Origin: Gemmatimonadota bacterium
Lineage (GTDB): Bacteria > Gemmatimonadota > Gemmatimonadetes > Gemmatimonadales > GWC2-71-9
Reading direction: 5' to 3'
Length of the DNA: 38,328 nt
NCBI GenBank assembly: GCA_039588295.1
Contig: JBDHAB010000030.1
Coordinates: 1 to 38,328 of the forward strand
Numbering within the stretch: the stretch's first letter is position 1; each line of letters starts with the position of its first letter. Made by a program: the position numbers and the translations under genes. Below are positions 1,362 through 35,731 of the stretch, in pieces. The notes beneath the pieces were generated by a model that was not told where the DNA came from, did not search any database, and saw only the letters and a list, made by a program, of their open reading frames with translations.

Positions 1362-2789
1362 TCATCGCTCGGTCTGCGGCGGACGTCGAATCGCTCGTCC
1401 CGGCGTCGCCCGCGATACGAACTCACCATCGTTCAATACCAGCGTGCCGTTCACGACCACGTATTTGACCCCTTCGGAGTACTGCGCGGAGTTCACGTAG
1501 GTCGCACGATCGATAATCGTGTTCGGATCGAACACCGTGATATCGGCGTACGTATCAGGCGCGAGGCGACCGCGCTCCCGCATCGAGGGTGTGCTCCGTT
1601 CGAGCCGCTCGGCCGGCATGATGGTCATCTTGCGCAGGGCTTCCATGAGCGTGAGGTGACCTTCGTCCCGGGCGAGTCGTCCGAGAACATGGGCGAACGT
1701 GCCCGCGCCACGTGGGTGGCCCTTGCCATTCACGATCACCCCGTCGCTGGTGATCATGACGAACGGATGGGTGAGCGCCATCAACATTTCGTTCTTGGGA
1801 ATGAAGAACGTGACGATGGTAGCACCCTTGTCCCGCCAGTGCGCGAACGTTTCTGCGTTCAGTCGCTCGCCCGTTTCGACCAGCATGATCGAGTCGACCG
1901 TGACTCCGCCGAAGCGCTCCTCCCAGCCGGGGTCGTAGAGCGCCGACTCGAGTCGCGTGCTGTTGGCGAGGTAGGGGTGAATGTCGGCTGTGACGTCGAT
2001 GCCATTCCGCTGAGCGCCCGCGATCATCTCGAGGCTCGCATCCACAGAACCGATGGCCGACGACGCGAGATGGACGATCTGCGCACTCGCTCCCGTGATC
2101 GCCGCCGCCGCGATCACCTCCTGTACCGACTGTACGATGGTTTCTGGGAACACGGAGCCTTTGTATCGTGAGTGGACGTGTGCTGGGACTCCGTGGTCGG
2201 CGGCCACCTGGAACATGTCGACGATCTCCTCATAGGAGGCGCCCGGCGTGTAGTTGATGCCGAAGCCGATCCCGAGGGCGCCAGCCTCGATTGCCTGGGC
2301 GGCGATCCGCTTCATCCGGCCCCGCTCCTCACGCGTGGCTGGTGTGTAGAGATCCGTCGCTCCCGCAGCCTCTCGTACGTCGGGATGGCCGACGGTGGTG
2401 CCGTAGTTCAAGAGCGCGCCCTGCGCCTCGAATTGGCGGTACCACTCGTCGATCTCGACCGGCCCGCCGTGCATGGAGACGACGGTGGTGACCCCGTCTT
2501 TGATCTTGTACCGCTGTGGCTCGTGTGACGGCCGCATGCGGGCCAGGATGTCCACAAATCCCGGAGCCACCACGAGGCCCGAGGCATCGATCGTGCGTGC
2601 CGCCTGAATGGGATCTCTGGTGATCGCCACGATCCGGTCACCACGCACCAGGACGTTGCGAACCCCATCGAGACCGCTCGCCGGATCCATCACCCGCCCG
2701 CCGACGATCGCAATGTCACCGACCTCCTGTGCCGTGAGCGCCGACGCCATGATGCATGGCACGATCAGCGCCCAGCGAAGTGTTCTCAT
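1362..2789 (-). CDS. Amidohydrolase family protein (D-aminoacylase-like), secreted
   Basis: Signal peptide; GGRVMDPASGLD..GDRI, APGFVD, DGVTT, SDG..HPRGAGTF, KMT..PA, ADITVFDP, VVVNG. The HxH position reads ILAR. Confidence 0.85.
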   Translation of the reverse strand: MRTLRWALIVPCIMASALTAQEVGDIAIVGGRVMDPASGLDGVRNVLVRGDRIVAITRDPIQAARTIDASGLVVAPGFVDILARMRPSHEPQRYKIKDGVTTVVSMHGGPVEIDEWYRQFEAQGALLNYGTTVGHPDVREAAGATDLYTPATREERGRMKRIAAQAIEAGALGIGFGINYTPGASYEEIVDMFQVAADHGVPAHVHSRYKGSVFPETIVQSVQEVIAAAAITGASAQIVHLASSAIGSVDASLEMIAGAQRNGIDVTADIHPYLANSTRLESALYDPGWEERFGGVTVDSIMLVETGERLNAETFAHWRDKGATIVTFFIPKNEMLMALTHPFVMITSDGVIVNGKGHPRGAGTFAHVLGRLARDEGHLTLMEALRKMTIMPAERLERSTPSMRERGRLAPDTYADITVFDPNTIIDRATYVNSAQYSEGVKYVVVNGTLVLNDGEFVSRATPGRAIRRPPQTER

Positions 2790-2836
2790 CGCCTGCCTCC
2801 GACTCGTTGGCCTGATGCCTGAGGGTGTTCTGCTTC

Positions 2837-2892
2837 CTTCTTTCTTCTCCCTTCTCCCTTCTCCCTTTTCCCTTGTCGCTTGTCGCCTGTCC
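2837..2892. repeat. Heptamer tandem array (CTTCTCC drifting to CTTGTCG)
   Basis: Eight in-register units: cttcttt cttctcc cttctcc cttctcc cttttcc cttgtcg cttgtcg cctgtcc. Confidence 0.85.
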
Positions 2893-2900
2893 CTCCCTGT

Positions 2901-3953
2901 TCACCTCACCGCCCGATCCGGCCTCAAGTGGCGCGCCAGAAACTGCCAGATCTCCCGGCGCGACTGTTTGGCCAACTGGTTGTCGAGCCGGTTGAAGCTG
3001 TGACCACCAGGCGCGTCCTCGTAGATCTTGTACTCGAAGCCCGACTTCCCCTCGGCCTTGAGCGCTTGAATGAGGCGCTCCACCTCGAGCACGTTGACGT
3101 CTCCGTCGTTCGTGTTCGTGTGAATGAGGAGCGGTGTCCCTTGGTACTTGTGGGTGTTCCACGAGGGAGACCGTCGCCGATACTCTTCCACATCCTCATA
3201 CGCGGTCTTGCCGATGTGGTACTCGGCGGAGTAGAGATCGCGGTACCCCTGGGTCTTGTAGCCCATGCGGGCGATGAGGTCACTCACCGGCACGCCGGCG
3301 TACGCCACCGCATAGGCGTCGGGGTGCTCGAAGATATTCATCAGTGCGTGCAGGCCCCCGTGGCTCCAGCCGATGATGCCCACTCGGTCTTGGTCGAGAA
3401 AATCGTAGTTCTCCAGCATGAAGTTGCGTGCGGCGTACGTGTCCTCGATTTCCAGGCCGCCGTAGTCGATGGCGCGGTAGGTCCCGCCGCCGTACCCGGT
3501 ACTGCCCCGGTACTCGGGCGCCACGACCGTGTAGCCCTGTGTCAGCAGCTCGCGCAGAATGTGGGTGTAGTACGTGGTGAAGTTGCTGTGGACCCCGCCG
3601 TGCGGGAACACAATGAGCGGCTGGCTCCTGCCGCGGTCCAGATCCTTCGGAATGAACACATAGGAGTAGAACCTGTAGGGGTTGCCGGCGCCCTGTGCGG
3701 TAGGGTTCGGCTCATACCGCAGCGCGGGGCCCGTGAGACGGACAATGTCGATCTCGGCGACGTCCCCCAAGCGGTGGAAAAACATGACGTCGTCGATGCG
3801 GCGGTTGATGGCGTCGACTTGGTGGCGGAGGCTCTCGATATGCCGTTCCAGCGTACGCTGGACGTTCTCGATGGATGCCTCGTCCTGACCGTGGGCCACC
3901 GAGGCTGTGAGGACGAGTGCCAGTGCTGGCACGAGAACTCGTGATCGCTTCAT
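2901..3953 (-). CDS. S9 family (prolyl oligopeptidase-like) alpha/beta-hydrolase, secreted
   Basis: Start moved to ATG 3953 (GGAGG upstream; MKRSRVLVPALALVL signal). Motifs HGGVH, EYRGSTGYG, GWSHGG nucleophile elbow, downstream Asp (NDGDV) and His (GGHSF). Confidence 0.9.
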   Translation of the reverse strand: MKRSRVLVPALALVLTASVAHGQDEASIENVQRTLERHIESLRHQVDAINRRIDDVMFFHRLGDVAEIDIVRLTGPALRYEPNPTAQGAGNPYRFYSYVFIPKDLDRGRSQPLIVFPHGGVHSNFTTYYTHILRELLTQGYTVVAPEYRGSTGYGGGTYRAIDYGGLEIEDTYAARNFMLENYDFLDQDRVGIIGWSHGGLHALMNIFEHPDAYAVAYAGVPVSDLIARMGYKTQGYRDLYSAEYHIGKTAYEDVEEYRRRSPSWNTHKYQGTPLLIHTNTNDGDVNVLEVERLIQALKAEGKSGFEYKIYEDAPGGHSFNRLDNQLAKQSRREIWQFLARHLRPDRAVR

Positions 3954-4138
3954 GGATTCCTCCTGCTCGCTGCCGATGGGGCGAATGGTGTGCGGCACCG
4001 CACGGAGACCCCCGAGTGATGGTGTTCGCCGTGTGCAGCCGTTGCACCGGACCGACGGTCCGATCGAGTTCCGTTCCCTGTCACAGGCCGTGTGCAAGTT
4101 CACTCAGCGGCTGTGCGCTGGTTCGCCGCACAGCCGAT

Positions 4139-4308
4139 ACGCTGCCGTGGACGTCGGAAACGATGTCTCGCACCGTTTGGTGTCGCACCTCGAAGAGAGG
4201 CTCCCGGGAGGGGCGGAGCCCTGACTACGCGAGCACGCGCGCGGTTGCGTGCCGCTCATTTGCCGCTGCGGCTTCGCGGCCGAGGAGGTCGAAGCGTTAC
4301 CGCAACGT
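4139..4308 (-). ncRNA. Candidate structured non-coding RNA (~170 nt), family unassigned
   Basis: Directly downstream of a TTGACA-17-AATAAT promoter. Ends pair (ACGUUGC/GCAGCGU), further nested pairings inside, followed by a perfect 10-bp hairpin at 4108-4136. Not matched to a known family. Confidence 0.3.
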
Positions 4309-4312
4309 GTCG

Positions 4313-4341
4313 ATTATTCGAGCCGTTTGAGCGTGTGTCAA
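4313..4341 (-). promoter_or_regulatory. Putative sigma70 promoter
   Basis: Minus strand TTGACA (4341-4336), 17-bp spacer, AATAAT (4318-4313). Confidence 0.55.
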
Positions 4342-4485
4342 GAGCCTCCGGGCGTCGGTTGTCCTCATTCGCCGACTGACTCCGTCCGAGTCCTTGGCGC
4401 TTGCCACGGGGCTCGCAGGGCCCTAGGTTCGCCTTTCCTGCGCCGCCCTGATCCCCAACCGAGTCACCCTGTGAGGTGTCCCATA

Positions 4486-5505
4486 TTGCAACCCGCGCGT
4501 CGCAAGCTCCAGCCATTCGACGAGCCGCCCATGGTCGCGCCGTTTGCCGAAGCGGGTCTGGAACCCCGGGAAATCTTGGAGTTCGCTACGGCAGCGGCGC
4601 TCGGATTGACCGACACGCCACGCTGGCTCCCCTGCCAGTATCTCTACGATGCGGAGGGCAGCCGCCTGTTCGACGAGATCACCGGCCAGCCAGAGTACTA
4701 CCCGACTCGCACCGAGGCATCGATCCTCGAGCATGCGGCCCTGGCAATCCGCGACGTCACGGGTCCCGTCACGCTGATCGAGTTGGGTTCCGGGAGTTCG
4801 ACCAAGACCGGGCACCTGCTCGAGGCGTACACCACCAGCGACGGAGCCGTGCGATACGTTCCGGTGGACGTCAGCGAAGCGGCGATCCGTGAGGCCCGCG
4901 CGCGCCTCACGGAAGAGCACCCGGAAGTCGAGTTCGCGGGGCTCGTGGGACGATACGAGGAGTCGTTCCACCTCTTCCGGGAGCACGCACCGGCCATGGT
5001 GCTGTTTCTCGGATCGACCGTCGGCAACTTCAACTTCGGCGAGTCGCTGCGGTTTTGGCGCCACGTGGCCCGGAGTCTCTCGGATGGTGACTACTTCCTG
5101 CTCGGCGTGGACCTCGTCAAAGATCGAGACGTGCTCGAGGCGGCGTACAACGATGCAGCCGGCGTCACTGCTCGGTTCACCAAGAACCTGTTCGTCCGCA
5201 TGAATCGCGAGCTGGATGCCGGAATCGATGTCGATCAGCTGGAGCATGTCGCGCGCTATAACGAGAAGTGGCAACGCATCGAGATCTTCGCGCGGTTCCT
5301 CTCACCCCAGACCGTGCGGATCGCGCCGCTCAAGGCCAGTGTGAACATTGGGGGCGGTGAGATGGTGATGACGGAGATCTCACGCAAGTTCGTGCTTCAG
5401 CACCTCGAGACGCATCTCTCGATGTTCGGTCTCAACCTGCGTGCCATCTTCACCGACGAGCGCCGCTGGTTTGGCGTGCTGCTGTTGCAGAAGCGCATGG
5501 GATAG
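4486..5505 (+). CDS. egtD: L-histidine N-alpha-methyltransferase
   Basis: LPCQYLYDAEGSRLFDEIT..PEYYPTRTE, IELGSGSSTKT, YVPVDVS, FLGSTVGN, GVDLVKD..LEAAYNDAAGVTARF, TEISRKF. Start taken as TTG 4486 (GAGGTG upstream); ATG 4531 is an alternative. Confidence 0.9.
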   Translation: MQPARRKLQPFDEPPMVAPFAEAGLEPREILEFATAAALGLTDTPRWLPCQYLYDAEGSRLFDEITGQPEYYPTRTEASILEHAALAIRDVTGPVTLIELGSGSSTKTGHLLEAYTTSDGAVRYVPVDVSEAAIREARARLTEEHPEVEFAGLVGRYEESFHLFREHAPAMVLFLGSTVGNFNFGESLRFWRHVARSLSDGDYFLLGVDLVKDRDVLEAAYNDAAGVTARFTKNLFVRMNRELDAGIDVDQLEHVARYNEKWQRIEIFARFLSPQTVRIAPLKASVNIGGGEMVMTEISRKFVLQHLETHLSMFGLNLRAIFTDERRWFGVLLLQKRMG

Positions 5506-16772: not shown

Positions 16773-18914
16773 TCAGGACGGCGTCTCTCCGAGTTGCACA
16801 CGGGCATCGATCGCCATGACGCCGTCCTCCAGCGCGATGAGCGGGTTGATGTCCATCTCCGCGATCCGCGGGTGACGCTCCGCCAGCTGGGATACCCGCA
16901 AGATCGCGTCGCTGAGAGCGCCGAGATCGCGTGGCGGCTCTCCCCGGACACCTTCCAGCAACTTGTACAGCTTCACTTCCCGGATCATCGCTTCGGCGTC
17001 GGTGTCCAGCAGCGGAGCGAGTCGGAGGACGACGTCGCGCATGACTTCGACGTAGATGCCGCCCATGCCGAACATCACGAGGGCCCCTACCCGGGGCACT
17101 CTCGTGAGACCAATGATGGTCTCCGTCCCGCCGGATGCCATCTGTTGAACCAAAATCCCGTCTATGGTCGGTGCGGACGAACCCTCGTCCCCCATTTGTG
17201 GCACGCGTTTGACCATGGTCCGTACGGAGCGCTCCACCTCGTTCTCATCCTGCAACCCGAGCGCGACCCCACCGACCTCGGTCTTATGGGTGATCTGCGG
17301 GCTTACGATCTTGAGCGCAACGGGAAACCCGAGGTCGACTGCCGCCTCCGCGACCGCGGGCGCGAGGCTTTGCGTTCCGTCGTGTGAGACGAACCGCCAG
17401 GGAACCGTTGGGATTCCGTATGCCTCGAGGATGCGGAGTGCGGCATGCTCGCTGAGCTTGCGCGAGCCGCGCTCGAGGGTCGCATCGACGACGTGCTCGA
17501 CCGCTGCATCGTCGGTATCGAACGATACCGGTCGGCCCTCGGGTCGGTCCGTCATGTGTCGGAAGCGCCACATGGCTCCGAGAGCCCGCGCTGCCGACTC
17601 CGGAAAGATGTAGGCAGGGATCTTCGCCTCGTGGAGCTCGGCCTGGCCCGCGGGCAACCCCTGGCGACCCATGAGCACGGCGAGGAGCGGCTTCTGGGGG
17701 AATCGCTCGTTGACGCGGACAATTGCGGCAGCGACGTCTCGCGTTTGGATGCCGAGCGGCGGAACGAACGCGGCAATGGCGGCATCCACGTTGGGATCGT
17801 CGAAGACACAGTCCAGCGCGAACTCGTAGTTGTGGGGCGTGGCGCTCGCGATGAGATCCACCGGGTTCTTGACGCTCGCCTCCTCCGGAAGCTGCGAGCG
17901 TAGCTTGTGTTCCGTTTCGGGTGCGAGCCGCACCACGTTGAGTCCGTTGTGCTCGCAGGAGTCGGCCGCGATGATGCCGGGGCCGCCGGCATTGGTGACG
18001 ATGGCGACCCGATTGCCGGCTGGCAGCGGCTGATTGGAAAAGGCCATCGCGAGGTCGAACAACTCGTTCACGGATTGCGCGCGAATGGCACCCGCCTGGG
18101 CGATCATCGCGTCGGTTGCCAGTTCCGTTCCGCCCAGTGCGCCCGTGTGCGACGCCGCTGCCCGTGCGCCGGCCCCGGTCCGACCGGACTTCACGACACA
18201 CACGGGTTTGCGCCTCGTGATCTGCCGCCCGAGATCCACGAACCGGGCCGGATTGCCGAAACTTTCCAGGTACATCAGCACCACACCGGTCCGCGGATCG
18301 TCGCGCCAGTACTCCAGCAGGTCGTTGCCGCTGACGTCCGCTTTGTTGCCGCTCGAGACGAACATTGAAATGCCGATCCCGAGGCTCTCGGCGTAATCGA
18401 GGATGCTGGCCCCCATCGCTCCCGATTGGCTGATGAAGCCGACCGGGCCCACAGGAGGGGTGGCCGGGGCGAACGTGGCGTTCATCGCGACCGCCGGGTC
18501 GTTATTGATGACACCCAGACAGTTGGGCCCCACCATGCGGACGCCCGTACGTCGGACGAGCTCCACCAACTCCCGCTCGCGCTCGACTCCCGCGCCGCCC
18601 ACTTCCTTGAACCCTGCGGAGATGACCACGAGACCTTTGACACCTGCGTCGACACATTGTCCGGCAACGGCCGCGACATGCTCCTTCGGTACGACGATCA
18701 CGGCGAGATCCACCGGGCCCGGGACATCCGTGATTGATGGGTAGGCCGGGATCGAATGGATTGCCGGCGCCTTCGGGTTCACGGGGTAGACGGGACCTTG
18801 GAACCCGACGCGCAGCAGATTATCGAGAATCTGCCAGCCGATCGTGTGCTGTTGCCGCGACGCTCCGATCACGGCAATGGACGTGGGCCGGAGGATGGAG
18901 TCGAGGGTCGACAT
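16773..18914 (-). CDS. Acetate/acyl-CoA ligase (ADP-forming), fused alpha-beta
   Basis: PTSIAVIGAS, YPVNP, GPNCLG, SQSGA, GNKADV, AASHTGAL (phospho-His), TNAGGPGI, NPVDL, HKTEVGGV, EMDINPL, DAR. Start ATG 18914; the longer ORF reads through a repeat array. Confidence 0.92.
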   Translation of the reverse strand: MSTLDSILRPTSIAVIGASRQQHTIGWQILDNLLRVGFQGPVYPVNPKAPAIHSIPAYPSITDVPGPVDLAVIVVPKEHVAAVAGQCVDAGVKGLVVISAGFKEVGGAGVERERELVELVRRTGVRMVGPNCLGVINNDPAVAMNATFAPATPPVGPVGFISQSGAMGASILDYAESLGIGISMFVSSGNKADVSGNDLLEYWRDDPRTGVVLMYLESFGNPARFVDLGRQITRRKPVCVVKSGRTGAGARAAASHTGALGGTELATDAMIAQAGAIRAQSVNELFDLAMAFSNQPLPAGNRVAIVTNAGGPGIIAADSCEHNGLNVVRLAPETEHKLRSQLPEEASVKNPVDLIASATPHNYEFALDCVFDDPNVDAAIAAFVPPLGIQTRDVAAAIVRVNERFPQKPLLAVLMGRQGLPAGQAELHEAKIPAYIFPESAARALGAMWRFRHMTDRPEGRPVSFDTDDAAVEHVVDATLERGSRKLSEHAALRILEAYGIPTVPWRFVSHDGTQSLAPAVAEAAVDLGFPVALKIVSPQITHKTEVGGVALGLQDENEVERSVRTMVKRVPQMGDEGSSAPTIDGILVQQMASGGTETIIGLTRVPRVGALVMFGMGGIYVEVMRDVVLRLAPLLDTDAEAMIREVKLYKLLEGVRGEPPRDLGALSDAILRVSQLAERHPRIAEMDINPLIALEDGVMAIDARVQLGETPS

Positions 18915-18932
18915 GGAATGGGAAGTTAGCAC

Positions 18933-19033
18933 GAGAGATGGAGAAGGGATAAGGGAGAAGGGAGAAGGGGGAAGGGATAGGGGGAGAGAGGAGAAGGGAG
19001 AAGGGAGTTTCGCTTCTCCCTTCTCCCTTCCCC
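18933..19033. repeat. Inverted heptamer array (GGAGAAG)n / (CTTCTCC)n
   Basis: About nine GGAGAAG-like units, a short spacer (tttcg), then cttctcc cttctcc cttcccc. Confidence 0.85.
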
Positions 19034-19069
19034 TAGACATTCGCCCTGCGACTGAAGACGTTGTACCTA

Positions 19070-19589: not shown

Positions 19590-21437
19590 ATGCGACACCT
19601 CGTCGTCTTCCGCTGGAGAGCCATTGTTCTTGTGGCGTTGCTCGTCCTGCTGCTTGTCGTCGGGTGGCTCGTGCTGCTCGACACGATGGTCGAGCGAGGA
19701 GTCGAGCGATCGGGGGCGTATTTGGTGGGGGCGAGGGTCGACGTTCAGTCGGCGGACGTGCGGTTGGGTGAGGGTGTCGTCGTGCTTCGAGGCCTGCAGG
19801 TGACGAATCCCGATGCGCCCATGACCAATCTGCTCGAGGCCGAGGAGATCGTGGTCGATGTTCGCATGGCACCGTTGCTCGAGCGCAAGGTACTGCTCGA
19901 CACGGTGGCCCTGCGGGGCATGCGATTCGGCACGCCACGGGGGGAATCCGGTGCGCTCGACGACATGCCGCCGGGAAGTGGACGGATCCATCGCGAGATC
20001 GCGCAGTGGGCGGGCGCGATTCGCATACCGCCGCTCACACTTGCGGGCCTTCGCCAGGCGGCGAACCTGGACGCCATTCAACCGGAGAGTCTCAAGACCG
20101 TAGCGGAAGCGCGTGCCAGCGCGCGGCTGGCCGACTCGCTGGTGCGACGCTGGGATGCGGAACTCCGTGCGCTCGATCCGCGGCCACGCATCGATTCGGC
20201 GCGCGCCCTCGTGGGACGACTGCAGACCGCGGATCCGCTTCGTTTGGGCGTGAGTGGAATGGCCAATCTGGCCACCTCGGCGCGAGGGACGCTCACCGAG
20301 GTGCAGGATCTCCGCGCACGGGTTGGCGGACTCGATTCGACGGCGCTCGCGCAGCTGACGCTGGCACGGGGGCGGCTCGACGCACTCGCCGCTTCTCGCG
20401 CTTCCGACATCGCTTTCGGGTTGAGCCTGCTCGAGCTTCCCACGCTCGAGGGTCCACAGCTGTCACCCGCGATCTTCGGTGATGCGGTCATCGCCTGGGT
20501 GCGTCCCGTGTTGTATTGGTTGCGACTCGCCGAAGAGTACCTGCCGCCCGGGCTCCGCCCCCGGCGCTATGCGGGAGCCGATCGGGTCCGCGGGCGCGGG
20601 ACGACGGTACTCTTCCCCACCGAACGGTCCGATCCGCGGTTCCTGTTCGGCAACGGGGAAGCGAGCTTTGTGCTTGCGGGGAGTCCGAACATCGCCGGCG
20701 AGTATCGGGTTCACATTACCGGCTTGACCTCCGATCCGGCTCTGTACGGCAAGCCGCTCGCGCTCGTGGCCGAGCGGGCACAAGCGACGCGTGGCCCCGC
20801 GAGCGTGAAGCTAGCGGTGGTCTTGAACCATGTCGCTCGGCCCGTCCGGGATTCGGTGGACGTCGTGTTGCGGGAGATCGGCCTACCGGCACTCGATCTC
20901 CGTGCGATTGGCGCGCGGCTCCTCTTGGGTCGAGGCGCAACAGAATTGTCAGTACGACGCACGGGCGACCAGCTCTCGGGCCGGTGGACCTGGCGTACGA
21001 CTGACGCGTCGTGGGAGCGGCTGGCCGCCGATACCGCTCAGGAGGTGCCGAGCGTCGGCAGTCGCCGGTGGGTGGAGGAGCTGCTGTGGCGCGCGGTGTC
21101 CGGCGTTCGCGCCGTCGACCTCGAGTTGCAGCTGAGCGGGGACATTCGATGGCCGTCGCTGGCGGTGCGGTCCAACGTGGGTGAGGTGGTCGCACGGGCG
21201 TTGCGGCAGGAGGTTGGTCGCGAGGTCGAGCGAGTCGAGCGGGACGTGCGGGAGAGAGTGGATGCCCTGACCGAACGGGGGATCGCGCGCGCACACGAGG
21301 GCGTGGACGCGCTGCAGGCGAAGCTGACGAACGAAATCGCATCGCGGCTTGCGGAGCTCGAGGCGCTGGAGGCGCAGTTACGGGATGAGATCCGTAAGCT
21401 CTCGCGCCGGTTGCCCGAAGGGCTTCCGGTCCCATAA
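19590..21437 (+). CDS. TIGR03545 family protein (N-terminal anchor, AsmA-like N-terminus)
   Basis: FRWRAIV + TM helix; VGARVDV..GLQVTNPDAPMTNL, FGTPRGESGAL, RGRGTTVLFP, ITGLTSDPALYGKP; 1 bp after the upstream gene. Confidence 0.8.
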   Translation: MRHLVVFRWRAIVLVALLVLLLVVGWLVLLDTMVERGVERSGAYLVGARVDVQSADVRLGEGVVVLRGLQVTNPDAPMTNLLEAEEIVVDVRMAPLLERKVLLDTVALRGMRFGTPRGESGALDDMPPGSGRIHREIAQWAGAIRIPPLTLAGLRQAANLDAIQPESLKTVAEARASARLADSLVRRWDAELRALDPRPRIDSARALVGRLQTADPLRLGVSGMANLATSARGTLTEVQDLRARVGGLDSTALAQLTLARGRLDALAASRASDIAFGLSLLELPTLEGPQLSPAIFGDAVIAWVRPVLYWLRLAEEYLPPGLRPRRYAGADRVRGRGTTVLFPTERSDPRFLFGNGEASFVLAGSPNIAGEYRVHITGLTSDPALYGKPLALVAERAQATRGPASVKLAVVLNHVARPVRDSVDVVLREIGLPALDLRAIGARLLLGRGATELSVRRTGDQLSGRWTWRTTDASWERLAADTAQEVPSVGSRRWVEELLWRAVSGVRAVDLELQLSGDIRWPSLAVRSNVGEVVARALRQEVGREVERVERDVRERVDALTERGIARAHEGVDALQAKLTNEIASRLAELEALEAQLRDEIRKLSRRLPEGLPVP

Positions 21438-21513: not shown

Positions 21514-24500
21514 ATGACGATCAACATTCCTGACGGGCAAAGCGCGGTGAGCGCCCATCGCCCGGACCTGGTGTCCGAGATCAATGCAGCACTGGGGGCG
21601 GCCGCTCGTGAGAGCGCCGACCGGTCTCTCGTGTCGGATCGTGGGGCGGTCGCAACGCTCCAAGCGTCCGACCGAGTGGACGGGCTCCTCGAACACACCG
21701 AACTGGAATTGCTCCGTATGCTGGTGCAGCGGTGTGTGACCCGACTCGAGCAGGCGGACTCCGAGGCTCGGTCAGCGCTGCGGCGGTTCGCGTGGGTGGT
21801 GCTCGACCTGGTCCGACGACCGGCCGTCGTCCGACGGGTGGATCGGGCGGCGATCGGAGATTGGGCCGGGCTGTTCCTACGAGCGATCGAAGTCTCGCAT
21901 CTCACGGTGGGACCGCTGCTCCGGCAACGTGCGGCGCGGTACGGTGAAAAGACGCTCTTCGAGCTTCCAGACAGCGGGGCGGGTGAGAGCCTGTCGTGGC
22001 ACGCGGTGATGCGGCGCGTCGATGCGATCGCTCGCGGGTTGCTTTCCCTGGACGATCCCGAGCGCATCGCGCCCGTCGCTATCCTCTCCGAGAATCGCAT
22101 CGAGATGGCGCTGCTGGATCTCGCATGTCTCTCGGCGGGCCTTCTCGATGTGATGGTGCCGGCCAACTCTACGGAGGCAGACGTCGGCTACATCCTGCGC
22201 CACGCCAAGGTGGCCACGGTGGTGGTTTCGAGCCGTGGGCAGCTGCGTAAAGTCCAGCACAACCGCGATAACCTTCCGGCACTGCGGCGGGTCATCACGA
22301 TGGACTCCATCGCAATCGGCGATCCGGATCTGCTGACCCTCGAGGCGGTGGAACAGCGGTCGGACCAGGTGGAGCCCGACGTTCCGGCACAGCGGGGCGA
22401 GGCCATCTCGATCGACGATGTCGCGACGGTCATGTACACGTCGGGCACCACCGGCATGCCCAAGGGGATTCAGTTCTCTCATCGCAACCTGGTCTTCAAG
22501 CGGTTCGCACGGGGACTGGCCCTTCCAGAGATCGGCGACGGGGATGTATTCCTCTCCTACCTGCCGCTGTTCCATACGTTTGGCCGGTTTCTCGAGATGT
22601 TGGGCTGCGTGTTCTGGGGTGCCAAGTACTGCTTCCTGCAGGACCCTTCGGTATCCGCGCTCGTGCAGGGAATGCAGCGCTACCGGCCAAGCGTGTTCAT
22701 CAGTGTCCCGCGAAAGTGGATCCAGTTATACGAGACGGCCGCAAACCGAGCGAACCTCCTAGAGGCCTCCGATGAGGAGATACTGGAGGTCACCAAGGAC
22801 GTGACCGGGGGTCGCCTACGCTGGGGCCTGTCCGCTGCCGGCCATCTGGAGTCGGAAATCTTCCGCTTCTTCCACAAGCAGGGCATCCAGGTCCTGAGCG
22901 GCTTCGGGATGAGTGAAGCCACGGGCGGCATCACCATGACGCCACCGTTCGAATACAAGGACGATTCACTGGGCGTCCCGCTCCCGGGCATCGAGCTGAA
23001 GTTGGCCGAAGATGGCGAACTGTGGATTCGCGGGCCCTACGTCATGATCGGGTATCTCGATCCGCCAGAGGGCGAACCCTCGTTTGACGCGGAGCGTTGG
23101 CTTCCGAGCGGGGACCTCATGCATCGAGATGCCGACGGCCACCTCCGCATCATCGATCGCAAGAAGGAGATCTACAAGAACATCAAGGGGCAGACGATCG
23201 CGCCGCAACGGATCGAGAACCTGTTCCGGGAATTCGAATCGGTCGGCCGCGTGTTCCTGGTGGGCGACCACAGGGAGTACAACACCCTCCTGATCTATCC
23301 GAATCCCGCCTATAAGGAGTTGGATTTCGGTTCGCGGCCGGCCCAGGAGGTGCGCGACCACTTCAGGTCCCTTGTCGCGTCGGTCAACAAGTTTGTGGCG
23401 CCGTTCGAGCGCATCGTGGACTTTGCGGTCATCGATCGTGATCTGGATGGGGATCGGGGGGAGCTGACGCCGAAAGGAACGCCGCGTCGCATGGTGGTCG
23501 TGGAGCACTTCGCAGACGCCATCGACGCACTCTACCGACGGACCAATCTCGAGGTCGGGGGTGTCGAGCTCACACTTCCCAATTGGCTGTTTCAGGCACT
23601 CGGCCTGACGGCGCAAGACGTGCAGGTCGTCCCAAACGGAATCGCAATCCCGTCGCTGGAGAGTCAACTCACGGTTCAGCGACTCGATGACATGCGGGTA
23701 CGGATCGGCTCCTGCTTGTATGTGGTTCCTCCGCGGGCGCTGAACCTCGGCGCCTTCCTCGCCACGCCACGGCTGTGGTTGGGGAACGAGGAGCTTGTGG
23801 CCTTTGCGCCGTTGGAGCTGTCCAGACGTGATCGGCCTGGCCGCCAGCATGTGGGGATCGCATGGTCGGGTCGCGTCGAACCCTCTCGACTCGCGGAGTC
23901 CGAACACGCGGCCTTGCGCGAGGCCGTCCGACGATCGGAATGGGATCTGCTGGAGCTCGATCGCGCGGCGCGCGCCATCGCCTCGGTCACTGAGGAGGCG
24001 GCGCTCGACGGGGTGCGACTGCTCGAGCGGGTGTTGGTGAATGAGGAAGGACCGCTCGCGGAGCCGGCACGGCTCGTGTTGGCGTGGGGTGCCGAGGCGG
24101 AATTCCCCGATGTGCGGCGCCGGGCCTTTCAGACGCTGGTACCCGCGGAACGCATTGCTCGCTTCCCCGAAACGCTGCGACGTTTCCTGGCGCGCGATCC
24201 GCTGTTGATCGATGCGGAAACGTCGTCGTTCCTCTGCGAGCGGAGTCTTCCCGACACGAAGATCGGAGCCTTCATCACGCTCGTTGAGGACGCGTGCATG
24301 CGAGACGGCGTCCGCAGCGACTGCGAGCCACTCTCACAATCGCTGCTGGGGTTCCTCGCCGAGTATGGAGCGGCACACCCGGCGCGGTTTGCGACGACGC
24401 GGGCGTTCCTCGTGCGAATGAGCCTGTTCGCGCAATCCCCGGAGGTCCGCCGCCGCGCCGCCGACGCCCGCGTGACCCTGGAATACGGCTTCCGTCAATG

Positions 24501-26280
24501 GCTGGGCCCGACGTCGAAGATCGCCGTCGACACCGAGACGGGTCAGGAGTATCGCTGGGAGGACGTGGTAGTGTTTGCCGAGGATACGGCTGAGACCGTC
24601 CGCAAACGTCTCCTGTCGGCAATCAAGACCACGCCGTTCCTGCGGGAGGCCGTATTCCTGTTCTACCGGGGCACGTTGATTCGGCTGAGCGACATCCCAC
24701 CGGGAGGGGTGTGGATTCGCTTGCTAGGCTCCCGACACGGGAAGTCGGTCTATCGAGTGACGGTGCAGACGCGGACCCAGGATACGTACGATCTCGCAGT
24801 GAATCTCAACGATGAGCTGTCGTCCGATCAGGTGCACGACGAGATCGACTGGCTGATCGTGTGCTCGGCGCCGGGGCCGGGCGCCCCGGTTGTGGAACGA
24901 TTCGGCGGGCACTTCGGGGAGCAGGATCTGTGGAGTGAGGAGTACGTGTCCGGCGATACGCTGGATCGAGAGATCCGACGGCTTGCGCGCCGCACGACCC
25001 AAGAAGAAGGGCTCGTCCAGCTATGGCCGTTCCTGGCGTGGAGTGCGCTCTCCGCCTACGTGGATTTCTGGCAGCGCACGGGGCGTCGTCTCGAGATCAC
25101 CGATCCCAGTATGGCAGACATCGTGCTGCCCACCCACGACTACCACACGGGGTCCCGGATTGTATCGTTGTCCGCCAGGCAACCACATGGCGGGCTGCTC
25201 GCGATGCTGCAGTTGTTCCGGGAGCGGTTCCTGCACGGCGTTGAGCAGGAGCACGACGTGCTCCGCGGTGTGGTCGGGTGGGACGTGATCTTCTCCGCTG
25301 TGCTGGAAGTGATCGGCGAACAGGATGGGCTGATGGCGCTCGATGAGGCGCTGACCGCGCAGCCGGAAGCTCCGGCGGGGTTGCGGGAGGCGTTGCATGC
25401 GTACGTGGCGACGGTCCGAACGCGCGGATTTCTACCCATGCGACTGTTCTTTGCTGCCAAGCGGTATCGTCGCTGGGCCCAGCTCAACCAGGATGCGACC
25501 CCGCAGGCGCGTGCGCGGACGCTGCAGGAGCTGTACGACACCTACCAATTGGATCGGTTGGCACAGTCGCATCCCGAGGTTCGCCTGCGGTTCTTCCGCG
25601 AGACGGTATTTCGCGGGGCGTCGGCGGAGTTGATACGCGGTCTGGACGAGCTGATTGCCCTCGTGCGGTCCGGAGAGCTGCGCAACGGTGAGCTTGCCGG
25701 TGCCGTCGCCGACCTGCGACAACGGTTATCGGTGGAGTCGGACGAGGACTACTTCCTGGCCCGGGTTCCGTTCGCGCACATCCGTCCCGAGGACGAAGTT
25801 GATTTCGTTAGCACCGATCTTGGCGGTATGGCGCAGAGCGAGATCGTGGTGCGTCTGGAAGACGCGGACGCCAACCTGTTCCAGGTTCGTCATGCGCTCG
25901 TGCCCAGGGAAGTGGAGCGGCTGCACCGGCTGTTCCTGTCGGCCAAGCTCGAAGTTCGGTTCCGTCCTGAGAATCGCTACCTCCTTGCCATCAACGCGCG
26001 GGAGCAGATCATCGGAGGGATCTTCTACGAGTTCGAAGAGAGCGGCGAGAGCGCTCACCTCGAGAAGATCGTCGTCGCCGACGGCTATCGTCGGAAGGGC
26101 GTGGCCGACGGATTGATGCGGGAGTTCTTCAACCGGTCGCGCGCGGCCGGGGCGAAGCGTGTAACAACCGGGTTCTTCCGGCCGGAGTATTTCTATTCCT
26201 ACGGATTCAAGATCGAGAAGCGCTACGCCGGCTTGGTGAAGCCCCTCGCAGAGGAGCCCGAGGACGCGACCGAGAGCTGA
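21514..26280 (+). CDS. Multidomain protein: long-chain acyl-CoA-synthetase-like AMP-binding domain + helical region + kinase-like region + C-terminal GNAT acetyltransferase
   Basis: AILSENRIE, MYTSGTTGMPKG, SYLPLFH, SVPR, GFGMSE, RGPYVMIGY, SGDL, DRKKEI..GQTIAPQRIE; C-terminal HLEKIVVADGYRRKGVADGLM..YFYSYGF; GAGGTG SD. Confidence 0.88.
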   Translation: MTINIPDGQSAVSAHRPDLVSEINAALGAAARESADRSLVSDRGAVATLQASDRVDGLLEHTELELLRMLVQRCVTRLEQADSEARSALRRFAWVVLDLVRRPAVVRRVDRAAIGDWAGLFLRAIEVSHLTVGPLLRQRAARYGEKTLFELPDSGAGESLSWHAVMRRVDAIARGLLSLDDPERIAPVAILSENRIEMALLDLACLSAGLLDVMVPANSTEADVGYILRHAKVATVVVSSRGQLRKVQHNRDNLPALRRVITMDSIAIGDPDLLTLEAVEQRSDQVEPDVPAQRGEAISIDDVATVMYTSGTTGMPKGIQFSHRNLVFKRFARGLALPEIGDGDVFLSYLPLFHTFGRFLEMLGCVFWGAKYCFLQDPSVSALVQGMQRYRPSVFISVPRKWIQLYETAANRANLLEASDEEILEVTKDVTGGRLRWGLSAAGHLESEIFRFFHKQGIQVLSGFGMSEATGGITMTPPFEYKDDSLGVPLPGIELKLAEDGELWIRGPYVMIGYLDPPEGEPSFDAERWLPSGDLMHRDADGHLRIIDRKKEIYKNIKGQTIAPQRIENLFREFESVGRVFLVGDHREYNTLLIYPNPAYKELDFGSRPAQEVRDHFRSLVASVNKFVAPFERIVDFAVIDRDLDGDRGELTPKGTPRRMVVVEHFADAIDALYRRTNLEVGGVELTLPNWLFQALGLTAQDVQVVPNGIAIPSLESQLTVQRLDDMRVRIGSCLYVVPPRALNLGAFLATPRLWLGNEELVAFAPLELSRRDRPGRQHVGIAWSGRVEPSRLAESEHAALREAVRRSEWDLLELDRAARAIASVTEEAALDGVRLLERVLVNEEGPLAEPARLVLAWGAEAEFPDVRRRAFQTLVPAERIARFPETLRRFLARDPLLIDAETSSFLCERSLPDTKIGAFITLVEDACMRDGVRSDCEPLSQSLLGFLAEYGAAHPARFATTRAFLVRMSLFAQSPEVRRRAADARVTLEYGFRQWLGPTSKIAVDTETGQEYRWEDVVVFAEDTAETVRKRLLSAIKTTPFLREAVFLFYRGTLIRLSDIPPGGVWIRLLGSRHGKSVYRVTVQTRTQDTYDLAVNLNDELSSDQVHDEIDWLIVCSAPGPGAPVVERFGGHFGEQDLWSEEYVSGDTLDREIRRLARRTTQEEGLVQLWPFLAWSALSAYVDFWQRTGRRLEITDPSMADIVLPTHDYHTGSRIVSLSARQPHGGLLAMLQLFRERFLHGVEQEHDVLRGVVGWDVIFSAVLEVIGEQDGLMALDEALTAQPEAPAGLREALHAYVATVRTRGFLPMRLFFAAKRYRRWAQLNQDATPQARARTLQELYDTYQLDRLAQSHPEVRLRFFRETVFRGASAELIRGLDELIALVRSGELRNGELAGAVADLRQRLSVESDEDYFLARVPFAHIRPEDEVDFVSTDLGGMAQSEIVVRLEDADANLFQVRHALVPREVERLHRLFLSAKLEVRFRPENRYLLAINAREQIIGGIFYEFEESGESAHLEKIVVADGYRRKGVADGLMREFFNRSRAAGAKRVTTGFFRPEYFYSYGFKIEKRYAGLVKPLAEEPEDATES

Positions 26281-26367: not shown

Positions 26368-27696
26368 CTACTTGACGCCGGCCAAGGCCGCTTCGTTGAT
26401 GCCGGCGGTCTCTTCCAACATCGCGGTGGTGACCGACTTGGGCCGCTCGATCGGATATCCGAGCGCGCGATCCCACGTGATGTTGGCGAGCACGCCGATG
26501 GCGCGGCCGATACCGAACAGCACCGTGTAGAAGTCCCACGCCGTCACCCCGTAGTACCACTGGATGACGCCGGATTGCGCGTCCACATTCGGCCACGGGT
26601 TCTTCGCCTTGCCGTGTTCCTGCAGAATGTCGGGCGCGACCTCGTAGATGGTGCTGATGAGCTTGAACAACGGAAACTCAGGCAGGTGCTTGAGGCAGAA
26701 CTCACGCTGCGCCATGTACCGTGGATCGGTCTTTCGCAGCACCGCGTGTCCGTACCCGGGGATCACTTGACCGCTGTTGAGCGTATCCCACAGCGCCTGC
26801 TTTACCGTCTCCTTGGTGTACTTCTCGCCACCCAGGTGATCCAGGAAGTTCATCGTCCAGCGAAGCACTTCCTGGTTTGCCAGACCGTGTAGCGGACCCG
26901 CCAAGCCGTTGATCCCCGCCGACAGCGCATAGAAGGCATCGGACAATGCCGAAGCCACCAGGTGCGTGGTGTGGGCGGATACGTTGCCCGACTCGTGGTC
27001 CGAGTGGAGGATGAAGTACATCCGGGCTACGTCATCATACGGCTTCCCAATCCCCATCTGGTGGGCGAAGTTCCCGCCCCAATCGAGATCCGGATTCGGT
27101 GCGATATGCGTGTCGCTCTGGTACTTCATCCGATAGATGTACGCGCCGAGCGACGGCAGCCTGGCCAGCAGATTGGTGCAGTCTTCGAACATCGGCTCCC
27201 AGTAGTCCATCTTGCTCATGCCTTCGTTGTACCGCTGTACGAAGACGGACTCACGCTGCATCGAGAGAATTCCCGCCGAGAACAGAGTCATCGGGTGAGT
27301 ATCCCGCGGCATTGCCCGCAGTACGTCAATTACGTAGTGCGGGAGTTGCCGACGCGCCTTCCAATCCTCCACGACTTCCAGCGTCTGTGCCTTGGTGGGC
27401 ACCTCGCCGGTGACGAGGTAGTGCCAGAATCCCTCAACGTACGGGTAGTCGCAGCTCGGCACTTTCGGCAGTGCTGCGAACGTCTCCGGGATGGTCTTCC
27501 CGCGGAATCGGATGCCTTCGAACGGATCGAGGTATGAGATGTCGGTCACGAGGCACCGCACGCCACGGGCGCCGCCAATCGCCTGCGTGATCGAGACCTC
27601 GCCGACCTTGACGTCGCCGAACTCTTTGAGCAATCGAGTCGTCCGCGGACGATGCTCCTCGATCTTCTTTCGCAGGACTTCTTTCAACGTCGACAT
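26368..27696 (-). CDS. gltA: Citrate (Si)-synthase, eukaryote/Geobacter type
   Basis: GGARGV..S.LDP.EGIRFRG, HSDHESGNVSAHT, NGLAGPLHGLANQEV, IPGYGHAVLRKTDPRY, NPWPNVDA.SG, IERPKS; GGAGG SD. Confidence 0.95.
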   Translation of the reverse strand: MSTLKEVLRKKIEEHRPRTTRLLKEFGDVKVGEVSITQAIGGARGVRCLVTDISYLDPFEGIRFRGKTIPETFAALPKVPSCDYPYVEGFWHYLVTGEVPTKAQTLEVVEDWKARRQLPHYVIDVLRAMPRDTHPMTLFSAGILSMQRESVFVQRYNEGMSKMDYWEPMFEDCTNLLARLPSLGAYIYRMKYQSDTHIAPNPDLDWGGNFAHQMGIGKPYDDVARMYFILHSDHESGNVSAHTTHLVASALSDAFYALSAGINGLAGPLHGLANQEVLRWTMNFLDHLGGEKYTKETVKQALWDTLNSGQVIPGYGHAVLRKTDPRYMAQREFCLKHLPEFPLFKLISTIYEVAPDILQEHGKAKNPWPNVDAQSGVIQWYYGVTAWDFYTVLFGIGRAIGVLANITWDRALGYPIERPKSVTTAMLEETAGINEAALAGVK

Positions 27697-27814
27697 GCGC
27701 ACTTCCCTCCTCCTTGTAGCCTCCGCCCCAGATGCCAGTCAACCATTCGGTTTGACAGTTAACCACGTTAAAGATACTACAAGGTGTCACCTTTCGGCAG
27801 ATGAGGATGTGGCC

Positions 27815-33616: not shown

Positions 33617-35551
33617 TTACGTCGCCCTGGCGATTGCCTCCAGCGCTTCGGGATTCTGCAGGGAGGCGAGATCTCCCAAGTCCTTTTGGCCAAGATACGT
33701 GTCGCGCACCAGCCGACGCACGACCTTGGCGCTCCGGGTCTTGGGGAGATCGCTCACGAATAGCACCCGCTCCGGCCGATCGATCTTGCCGACCCGGCCG
33801 ACCACGGCTTGCACCAACTCGGAACGCAGTCCCTCCGTTGCCTCAACATCGGGTCGCGGCACCACGAAACAGACAATGGCTTCCCCCTTGAGTTCGTGCG
33901 GTACGCCGATGGCAGCTGCCTCGCTGATCTTATCGGTCGCCATGAGCGCGCCCTCGATCTCAGCCGGTCCGATCCGGCGGCCTGCCACGTTGAGCGTGTC
34001 GTCGGCACGGCCTTCCACGAACCAGTACCCGTCTTCGTCGATCCGCGCCCAGTCACCGTGGTTCCAGACATCGGGCCATTTCGACCAGTAGCTCTCGAGG
34101 TACCGGTCTGGATCGTTCCACAATCCGCGTGTCATGGACGGCGTTGGTTTCGTGGCTACGAGGTACCCCACCTCGTTCCGCACAGGCTGCCCGTCCTCAT
34201 TCCACACATCGATGGCCATGCCGAGTCCGGGAGCGACCAGTGAACAGGGTTTGAGCGGATGGATTGGCAGGGGAGACAGGAAGCAGCCGATGATGTCGGT
34301 CCCCCCGGAGATGTTGATGATGGGGCAACGGCTGCCCCCCACGACGTGAAAGAACCAGCGCCACGACCGCTCGTCCCATGGCTCGCCGGTCGACCCGAGG
34401 ATCCTGAGAGTCGAAAGGTCGTGCCTGTTGACCAACTTCGTTCCATGCTGGATGGCGAGGCGCACGGCGGTGGGCGACGTGCCAAAGACGGTGATGCGGT
34501 GCCGCTCGAGCATCTCCCACAAGCGGTCGTGACTCGGAGAGTCGAACGAACCGTCGTAGAGCATGATCGTTGCCCCGTGGAAAAGCCCCCCGATGATCAT
34601 CCACGGTCCCATCATCCAGCCGATGTCGGTGAGCCAGAAGAACCGGTCGCTGGGCTTCATGTCAAAGGCATAGCCCACTTCCTTCGCGACCTGCACCAGC
34701 GTCCCGGCGTGGCTGTGTACGGTCCCCTTGGGGCGGCCGGACGTGCCGGAGGTGTACAAGATGAGCGCCGGGTCCATGGAGTCCATGGCTTCGGTGGGGA
34801 CCCTGGCCTCGTGGGAGAGGAACTCTGGCCACGCCACGTCGCGCCCTGCGTACCAGACCACATCTTCGTCGGTATACCGTGACATGACGACCGTCGTGAC
34901 CGATGGCGCCTCCTCCACCGCGGCGTCCGCGTTCCCTTTGATGGGCACGTCGACCCCACGGCGTTGGGAAGCATCGGCGGTGAAGAGCAGCTTTGCACCG
35001 GCGTCGCGGAGCCGCTCCGCGGCCGCCGCCGGCGCGTAGCCGCTGAAGATCGGGATGTAGATCGCACCGATCTTGAAGGTGGCGAGCATCTGCACGACGA
35101 CGTCCGCCGTCATGGGCATGTACGCGGCGACGCGATCGCCCTTCTGGATGCCGGCAGCGACGAGGCCGGCCGCACACCGCTCTACCTGATCGTGGAGCTC
35201 GGCGAACGTGAGGGTCGTGACCGCGCCGTCTTCCCGCTCGGCAATGACGCATGCTCGAGCGGCCAGCCCGCCACCGAGGTGCCGCTCGAGGCAGTTCGCC
35301 GTAATGTTGAGCGTGCCGCCGAGGTACCACTCGGTCCACGGGTATCCCTTCGAGACGTCGCGAACCGTGTTGTATGGCTCTAGGAACTCGATGCCGAGGT
35401 CCTCGACGATCGCGTCCCAGAACCACTCCTGCTCTTCGAGAGATCGCGCGACGAGGGTCGCTTCGTCGCGGATGTCATGTTTCCGCATGAAGCGGGCGAT
35501 GTTGGTCGACTCGATGAACGCAGGCTTGGGTGACCATACGAATTCTGCCAT
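33617..35551 (-). CDS. Acetyl/acyl-CoA synthetase (AMP-forming, Acs-like)
   Basis: LNITANCLERH, GDRVAAYMPM, LYTSGTSGRPKG, TDIGWMMG, STGEPW, GRADD..VAGRRIGPAEIE, LPKTRSAKVVRR. Start 35551 or 35560. Confidence 0.9.
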   Translation of the reverse strand: MAEFVWSPKPAFIESTNIARFMRKHDIRDEATLVARSLEEQEWFWDAIVEDLGIEFLEPYNTVRDVSKGYPWTEWYLGGTLNITANCLERHLGGGLAARACVIAEREDGAVTTLTFAELHDQVERCAAGLVAAGIQKGDRVAAYMPMTADVVVQMLATFKIGAIYIPIFSGYAPAAAAERLRDAGAKLLFTADASQRRGVDVPIKGNADAAVEEAPSVTTVVMSRYTDEDVVWYAGRDVAWPEFLSHEARVPTEAMDSMDPALILYTSGTSGRPKGTVHSHAGTLVQVAKEVGYAFDMKPSDRFFWLTDIGWMMGPWMIIGGLFHGATIMLYDGSFDSPSHDRLWEMLERHRITVFGTSPTAVRLAIQHGTKLVNRHDLSTLRILGSTGEPWDERSWRWFFHVVGGSRCPIINISGGTDIIGCFLSPLPIHPLKPCSLVAPGLGMAIDVWNEDGQPVRNEVGYLVATKPTPSMTRGLWNDPDRYLESYWSKWPDVWNHGDWARIDEDGYWFVEGRADDTLNVAGRRIGPAEIEGALMATDKISEAAAIGVPHELKGEAIVCFVVPRPDVEATEGLRSELVQAVVGRVGKIDRPERVLFVSDLPKTRSAKVVRRLVRDTYLGQKDLGDLASLQNPEALEAIARAT

Positions 35552-35731
35552 GAGACGCATCCCCTCCACCTCCCTTGATACCGTTCATCCGGGCCGCCGA
35601 CAAGGGGGCCGCCCGTCCCCGCGGCGGTGGTGGGCGGCGTCGCTGGGGTCCCGGGTGCTCGGCGAGCCGCCGTTATGTGCGCTCGATCACGGCCCGACGG
35701 GCGTAAGGCCTTATCCTGACGATACTTCGGC

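Follow-up and report, generated by a model that had tools for sequence, protein, structure and literature searches.

A conserved bacterial fusion protein combining a non-canonical acyl-CoA-ligase-type domain, a pseudokinase scaffold and a GNAT domain

The fusion gene and its family

In the window, i.e., the whole analysed stretch of 38,328 nucleotides from a Gemmatimonadota bacterium, a single frame without internal stop runs on the + strand from an ATG at position 21514 to the stop codon at 26280, encoding a protein of 1588 amino acids. Its GC content is that of the window, and promoter and terminator scans at the locus stayed at chance level. The gene (21514..26280) encodes an ANL ligase, a beta domain, ARM/HEAT-like helices, a pseudokinase, a helical bundle and a GNAT domain, all on the + strand, headed by an N-terminal extension (residues 1–130; 21514..21903) that is probably helical and weakly conserved. 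Pfam recognizes AMP-binding (residues 137–515, E 4e-70), the ACSL-type C-subdomain AMP-binding_C_3 (residues 557–677, E 3.7e-12) and Acetyltransf_1 (residues 1479–1552, E 1.6e-6), and nothing between the end of AMP-binding_C_3 at residue 677 and the start of the GNAT match at 1479. An AlphaFold model of residues 680–1588 (pLDDT 89.4, pTM 0.81) accounts for this entire part of the protein, which comprises, in order, a beta-rich domain (680–795), an all-helical stretch (796–1000), a bilobal kinase-like domain, a helical bundle and the GNAT.

An earlier note, made from the sequence alone, had described the frame as a 1588-residue adenylation–helical–pseudokinase–GNAT fusion. The open reading frame and the coordinates of all four segments (ligase, helical, kinase-like, GNAT) proved right, and the architecture is borne out by Pfam, the AlphaFold model and structural matches. 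The note had also seen no carrier or condensation domain and had set the protein apart from standard NRPSs, in agreement with the absence of any carrier-protein, condensation or reductase family from the seven listed Pfam matches; the protein has neither NRPS nor carboxylic acid reductase character.

A search with residues 680–1588, leaving out the ligase, retrieved 485 proteins among 7986 candidates, and a search with P0195, a distant relative from another family of the same phylum (1533 aa, 31% identity), retrieved 520 among 7991; the best 120 of each were listed, and the two sets may overlap. When the database was queried with a profile of the kinase-like region, 384 clusters (50% identity) matched; 150 representatives were listed, 71 of them full-length (at least 1450 aa). 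All 71 retain the five parts, from the ligase through the beta domain, the helices and the kinase-like domain to the GNAT, as judged by profiles built from the fusion family itself. The source labels of the members comprise Gemmatimonadota, Acidobacteriota, Eisenbacteria, Zixiibacteriota, Krumholzibacteriota and Marinimicrobia. In the Gemmatimonadota sample, the gene is patchy and single-copy, with the same uninterrupted frame in 12 of 401 genomes. This recurrence, together with the five-part layout of every full-length representative, rules out an assembly artefact or read-through, which the earlier note would have suspected had the homologs always been separate genes.

Shorter relatives (73 matches) lie mostly on short contigs, and two odd ones examined in full have frameshifted tails; a stand-alone split form was established neither among these 73 nor among the 150 listed of the 384 representatives. 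A single-sequence pattern scan of the genome collection returned one locus. In a FastTree phylogeny of 88 sequences, two deep clades are resolved, so that we are dealing with a real, conserved, two-clade family. It is apparently unstudied: no description of the architecture was found in the main texts of CC-licensed PMC papers and of bioRxiv, the supplements of which could hide a family survey, and in the Atlas its members bear automatic names only.

The ligase domain and its displaced A10 lysine

The adenylation core (residues 131–548; 21904..23157) carries an intact A3 P-loop, A4 His, A5 Glu and A7 Asp, and is followed by a C-subdomain of the ACSL type (PF23562; residues 549–677; 23158..23544) with invariant R549, K551, K555 and G559. 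Among family representatives, S310, G311 and K317 are each kept in 76/77, H354 in 77/77, E468 and D534 in 84/84, and R549 and K555 in 85/85. K555 aligns with K443 of luciferase, a residue which presumably acts in the second half-reaction. Between the clades, the ligase is the most conserved part of the protein (40–45% identity), with 97 of 547 columns conserved to at least 97%. None of the best 25 of 98 matching NCBIfam models reaches its curated cut-off, the best being FadD11 with 213.8 bits against a cut-off of 950, and PRK06187 scores 182.7 against 476. Judged by sequence, the domain is an ANL enzyme of the ACSL/FadD type by fold family, but not a canonical one. The long-chain acyl-CoA-synthetase likeness proposed earlier is, thus, upheld at the level of the fold family, while a fatty-acid substrate is unlikely in view of two features, the displaced A10 lysine and a basic triad.

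The altered A10 motif reads T652-x-K654-G-T656-x-x-R659 (23467..23490). In the joint alignment, column 656, the place of the canonical lysine, holds Thr (118) or Ser (96) in all 214 full-length members; of 47 control ANL proteins, 46 have Lys there. This register rests on these 47 uncharacterised controls and the published motif, the alignment of the C-subdomain to PDB sequences being too weak at A10 (CAR 6oz1, E 0.8). Two residues before this column, K654 is a lysine in 214/214 members. Representatives found via the kinase domain alone give the same picture, with Lys at 656 in 0/87 and 86 Lys and one Arg at 654. The controls were ANL proteins from the genome of the window and from metagenome loci L039–L102, with 11 loci left out beforehand; 10 of 57 control matches were dropped for want of the anchor motif or the C-terminal part.

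The A10 lysine contacts the alpha-phosphate during adenylation, is the key residue for adenylation and the target of regulatory acetylation, as stated in PMC8388817; the motif of the fusion does not fit Px4GK. As the canonical lysine is absent and K654 and K555 are invariant, the domain would either still work as a ligase, its lysine having been relocated, or be a binding domain that has lost adenylation. Restriction of ANL enzymes to a single half-reaction is exemplified by PtmA1/PtmA2 (PMC6594144). Adenylate-forming enzymes are regarded as having the A10 lysine almost without exception, and this residue as the standard acetylation switch; a family in which it has moved by two residues, beside its own acetyltransferase domain, offers a direct test of adenylation without the canonical lysine, and of whether such a shift evades a regulatory site or generates one.

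The second feature is an invariant basic triad—K329, R330 and R333 (22498..22512)—placed by sequence alignment on a predicted pocket helix. All three positions are basic in 214/214 full-length members and 77/77 representatives; of 53 controls, 50 have no basic residue there, three have one and none has two. K329 aligns gap-free with R220 of Luciola luciferase, which we take to be the equivalent of firefly luciferase Arg218 (numbering offset of two). The latter lies near the active site (PMC7555964). K329, R330 and R333 would, thus, line the acid pocket, and three fixed positive charges on the predicted pocket helix make a di- or tricarboxylic acid, rather than a long-chain fatty acid, the likely substrate. 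Together with the TCA genes nearby, the predicted basic pocket narrows the candidates to about ten acids. R358 was also considered as a pocket residue and dropped, with Arg at that position in 27/53 controls too.

Scaffold, GNAT domain and genomic context

Downstream of the ligase, the AlphaFold model places a small, unassigned beta-rich domain (residues 680–795; 23551..23898) with conserved P689, W691, G732, Y736, W755 and N758, followed by an ARM/HEAT-like helical stretch (residues 796–1000; 23899..24513) seen in both model and profile. The profile of residues 680–1010 matches engineered armadillo-repeat proteins (best E 5.6e-5), and a HEAT_2 match in the relative P0390 adds support, so that the HEAT-like helices suggested by the earlier note, all-helical in the model, find their confirmation. 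The protein-kinase-like domain (about residues 1015–1305; 24556..25428) is succeeded by a helical bundle (residues 1306–1420; 25429..25773), the latter defined by the model. Modelled alone, residues 1012–1415 reach a pLDDT of 93.9, and 50 of 50 listed structural matches are protein-kinase-like folds (Z 9.4–12.0), led by Bud32 (4ww5; Z 12.0, rmsd 4.3, 214 residues aligned) and further including homoserine kinase, YtaA and Rio1. Foldseek agrees with a kinase-like fold (best E 5e-6); the profile of the region yields nothing credible against PDB sequences (best E 0.042). As a lead only, the Atlas points this part toward DUF6206 clusters (score 0.94).

When the kinase motifs are placed by predicted secondary structure, the position of the beta3 Lys (N1097) is Asn in 104/108 clade-1 sequences and aliphatic in clade 2, and the DFG Asp position (S1218) is Ser in 105/108 and 91/106 sequences of clades 1 and 2, respectively. 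The catalytic-loop position 1197 is D or E in 101/108 close relatives and D in 19/87 diverse sequences, of which 70/87 have Asn at position 1202. With both the beta3 Lys and the DFG Asp absent, the domain, as far as its sequence goes, meets the definition of a pseudokinase given in PMC4718504, and the pseudokinase of the earlier note holds on the strength of these losses and the uniformly kinase-like structural matches. K1077, at the start of beta2, is Lys in 107/108 close relatives; across broad clade 1 this residue is K/R in 38/42 and the alphaC Glu is present in 36/42, and neither is kept in clade 2. Given the retention of these two residues, and that WNK kinases use a substitute lysine in beta2 (PMC4718504), the clade-1 kinase fold may still bind nucleotide.

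The GNAT domain (residues 1453–1580; 25870..26253) has a conserved E1466, an acidic residue 1517 and, as previously noted, an intact motif A, RRKGVA (residues 1526–1531). It matches YhbS best (4rs2; Z 16.0, rmsd 1.9, 135 aligned), with N-acetylglutamate synthase (Z 14.7), RimI and Ard1 among the other structural matches and no clear winner. The motif A pattern (R/Q-x-x-G-x-G/A) is found in 102/108 clade-1 sequences and, in its strict form, in 29/106 clade-2 sequences, where G1529 is kept in 103/106. Clade-1 members resemble one another more closely in the GNAT (76% identity) than in any other domain; between the clades, GNAT identity is 31%, with 6 of 128 columns conserved to at least 97%. The clade-1 alignment shows no variation at K1518 and R1556, and residue 1518 is Gly in 38/46 clade-2 sequences.

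Convergent to the fusion lies a gene for a eukaryote-like citrate (Si)-synthase (26368..27702, − strand; NF007128, 751.7 bits, cut-off 344). No further citrate synthase was found in this genome; five relatives that lack the fusion encode other citrate synthases. In the phylum sample, the eukaryote-like enzyme occurs in 12/12 fusion-bearing genomes, which represent about three lineages of non-independent kin, and in 21/389 others, i.e., in 21 genomes without the fusion. It adjoins the fusion in 10 of the 12; nine of these pairs are convergent, and one, in a genome of another family, is in tandem. A second order harbours clade 2, and here the eukaryote-like enzyme is present in 5/9 fusion-bearing and 13/292 other genomes (one genome, G115, belongs to both samples); none of these five citrate synthases shares a contig with the fusion, and the four fusion-bearing genomes without one are 72–95% complete. 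No citrate synthase was seen in the fetched flanks, many of them short, of the metagenome family loci L023–L038 and L040.

Clade-2 neighbours were taken from 34 hand-picked nearest ORFs at nine loci, three of them on short contigs. They include a class I fumarate hydratase, divergent and directly upstream of the fusion in two genera, and a PPDK/PEP-synthase regulator (PpsR), directly downstream on the same strand in a third genus. Four related marine loci have a gene for a CitMHS/SLC13-type transporter at a distance of two genes from the fusion. The fusion is linked genomically to TCA genes, although the link is not obligatory. No biosynthetic operon with shared tailoring, precursor or export genes recurs in distant loci, and a biosynthetic cluster was rejected for lack of shared neighbours beyond close kin. 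This genome also has separate ordinary ANL enzymes, one of them with the canonical ACSL A10 motif, as well as a sirtuin, which is common (10/14 controls).

Candidate functions and relation to known systems

The reading we favour, albeit tentatively, is that of a predicted protein acetyltransferase gated by a TCA acid and ATP, resembling Pat in its logic without being a Pat. The ligase-type domain would bind ATP together with citrate or another di- or tricarboxylic acid, its state would be relayed via the helical and pseudokinase scaffold to switch the GNAT, and the GNAT would acetylate lysines on enzymes of central carbon metabolism, the neighbouring citrate synthase being the first candidate. 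The nature of the acid, an allosteric relay, the acetyl-CoA donor and the protein acceptors are all inferred. Three considerations speak for gating. In type I/II Pats, a catalytically inactive synthetase domain serves as an allosteric sensor (PMC8556138); the canonical A10 lysine is gone; and a scaffold of about 770 residues suits relay and docking, these beta, ARM-like and pseudokinase parts probably exceeding what two-step small-molecule chemistry needs. The basic triad, the TCA genes nearby, the lack of a recurrent biosynthetic operon and the motif A of most clade-1 GNATs also favour this reading. Against it, the conserved ligase with K555, G559 and invariant K654 fits a working enzyme equally well, clade-2 GNATs often depart from the strict motif A, and the citrate synthase link is not obligatory and comes from few lineages.

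Possible as well, if rather unlikely, is a fusion that supplies its own acyl donor: the ligase, working via the relocated K654, would make a CoA thioester of citrate or of a C4/C5-dicarboxylate, and the GNAT would acylate protein lysines with it. A gated acetyltransferase and such a self-supplying polycarboxyl transferase differ only in ligase turnover. The invariance of the ATP-binding and thioester-forming residues (A3, E468, D534, R549, K555, G559), a K654 that is never lost, the invariant K1518 and R1556 of the clade-1 GNATs and a fusion unbroken in all full-length members argue for the self-supplying transferase; the loss of the canonical A10 lysine in all members, the Gly at 1518 in most clade-2 sequences and a GNAT that looks like ordinary acetyltransferases argue against it. 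Of the two mechanisms offered by the earlier note, both of them predictions, the sensing protein acetyltransferase fits slightly better than the self-supplying N-acyltransferase. A bolder form, similarly improbable, would be a single polypeptide that installs a new kind of lysine modification: its migrated-lysine ligase would make citryl-CoA or another polycarboxyl-CoA, and a nucleotide-binding pseudokinase would position the GNAT to acylate TCA enzymes. In a variant, the neighbouring citrate synthase would split citryl-CoA, and the two proteins together would behave like ATP-citrate lyase and pass acetyl-CoA straight to the GNAT.

A more doubtful arrangement reverses the roles, the enzyme proper being a CoA ligase of the AMP-forming type that activates a TCA-type acid, and the GNAT and pseudokinase its built-in control, proposed to act through acetyl-CoA or nucleotide binding or through auto-acetylation of K654. 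Such a design would accord with a ligase conserved far above the GNAT between clades, the frequently irregular motif A of clade 2, a clade-1 kinase fold that may bind nucleotide, and the precedent of Pat-type GNATs that regulate ANL enzymes at the A10 lysine (PMC8388817); it has to contend with an A10 motif that does not match Px4GK, and with the GNAT being the best conserved domain within clade 1, as would befit substrates acetylated in trans. Doubtful, too, is a small-metabolite synthetase in which ligase and GNAT successively make an N-acylated product, e.g., a citryl- or succinyl-amine: N-acetylglutamate synthase among the top GNAT fold matches and the transporter gene of the marine loci would suit it, but distant loci share no tailoring, precursor or export genes, and the large scaffold is left without explanation. 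A fatty-acid version, in which a long-chain acyl-CoA synthetase would supply an N-acyltransferase that puts fatty acyl groups on lipids or proteins, as the PF23562 C-subdomain, the best NCBIfam matches and the database names of relatives (long-chain acyl-CoA synthetase) might suggest, is highly improbable in the face of scores far under the cut-offs, three invariant basic residues on the predicted pocket helix, the separate ordinary ANL enzymes of the genome and the TCA genes next door.

Set beside known systems, the fusion is neither a Pat, an NRPS, a canonical ACSL nor a canonical kinase. Among the closest are the type I/II Pats (Pat/PatZ/YfiQ; SlPatA), in which a large domain derived from an acyl-CoA synthetase, with a changed catalytic residue, is likewise fused to a motif-A GNAT. 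Their domain, however, has the NDP-forming synthetase fold without the catalytic His (PMC8556138), whereas the ligase of the fusion belongs to another, unrelated fold, that of the AMP-forming ANL enzymes, and has its A10 lysine displaced, and ligase and GNAT lie about 770 residues apart, separated by the beta, ARM-like and pseudokinase domains; Pfam finds AMP-binding families only and no NDP-forming synthetase domain in the protein. With ACSL, FadD15 and FadD11 (PF00501 plus PF23562), the ligase shares fold family, C-subdomain type and motifs A3, A4, A5, A7 and A8, but it differs in the Thr/Ser A10 column with a lysine at −2, the basic triad on the predicted pocket helix, 900 extra residues and scores below all listed NCBIfam cut-offs. 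PtmA2, a non-adenylating acyl-CoA ligase, has lost its A10 lysine. It is an ANL enzyme specialised for one half-reaction (PMC6594144) and stands alone in a natural-product cluster, while in the fusion family the P-loop is invariant, and so is a lysine close to the A10 position.

The bilobal fold is common to Bud32/PRPK, RIO and APH/homoserine kinase (Z 9.4–12.0 over about 200 residues), and the clade-1 basic residue at the start of beta2 would lie where WNK has its substitute lysine (PMC4718504). Unlike active kinases, the fusion lacks the beta3 Lys, has Ser for the DFG Asp and does not conserve the catalytic-loop Asp family-wide; among small kinases and pseudokinases, its domain has no near structural relative. 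Type III GNATs, with a cAMP-, ACT- or NADP-binding regulatory domain, also place a metabolite-binding domain upstream of the GNAT, whereas regulation in the fusion would fall to a complete ANL enzyme together with the pseudokinase scaffold; its Pfam matches include no regulatory domain of the cNMP-, ACT- or NADP-binding kind. What is new here is the non-canonical ligase with its displaced A10 lysine and basic triad. Bacterial protein acylation is known from few GNAT classes, to which the family, if the favoured gated-acetyltransferase reading is true, would contribute a further class, based on an AMP-forming ligase together with a pseudokinase and spread across poorly studied phyla. The Atlas holds, in addition, smaller, separate clusters combining AMP-binding with GNAT and AMP-binding with APH domains.

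Genes surrounding the fusion in the window

The gene directly upstream of the fusion encodes a TIGR03545-like protein (19590-21437, + strand; 133 bits, below the cut-off of 173), which lies on the same strand, is separated from it by a gap of 76 nt, and shares synteny with it only among close kin. Located 2.5 kb upstream of the fusion, a single-chain NDP-forming acyl-CoA ligase (16773-19040, - strand) is composed of CoA_binding, Succ_CoA_lig and ATP-grasp_5 domains, and its synteny is kept in nine close loci. Its fold is that of the sensor of Pat, the bacterial protein lysine acetyltransferase; a GNAT domain is absent from this ligase according to the Pfam domain search.

Acetyl-CoA synthetase is a classical Pat target; an acetyl-CoA synthetase-like gene with ACAS_N and AMP-binding domains (33617-35569, - strand) is found 7 kb downstream of the fusion. 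The window also encodes a histidine-specific SAM methyltransferase of the EgtD type (4249-5505, + strand; PF10017).

Atypical family members and an unrelated ligase fusion

In the metagenome locus L032, a 625-aa ORF (2296-4170) combines an N-terminal part of the fusion family, including the KRFAR motif, with a C-terminal part that carries a canonical ACSL A10 motif, where the ORF stops; it is either an assembly chimera or a natural hybrid. Frameshifts, probably sequencing errors, break the family genes at L024:7878-12640 and in proteins P0343 and P0453. The deep-branching member P0378 is degenerate in the P-loop and A5 region, still keeps the basic triad of the predicted pocket helix, and has Arg at residue 654.

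A separate fusion type, unrelated to that of the window, is present at L039:5643-9686 and L042:3313-5943, comprising a region of ~400 aa without family assignment, followed by DUF2889 and an ACSL-type ligase, which in L039 has the canonical A10 Lys.

Citrate synthase copies and transporter neighbours

Two sampled genomes, G613 (contig G613:C96) and G537, each possess two eukaryote-like citrate synthases, which in G613 lie on one contig, ~2.4 kb apart. In four related marine loci (L029, L030, L035 and L037), the upstream flank contains a divergent gene with GAF and HD-GYP domains, beyond which lies a transporter gene of the CitMHS/TrkA-C type.
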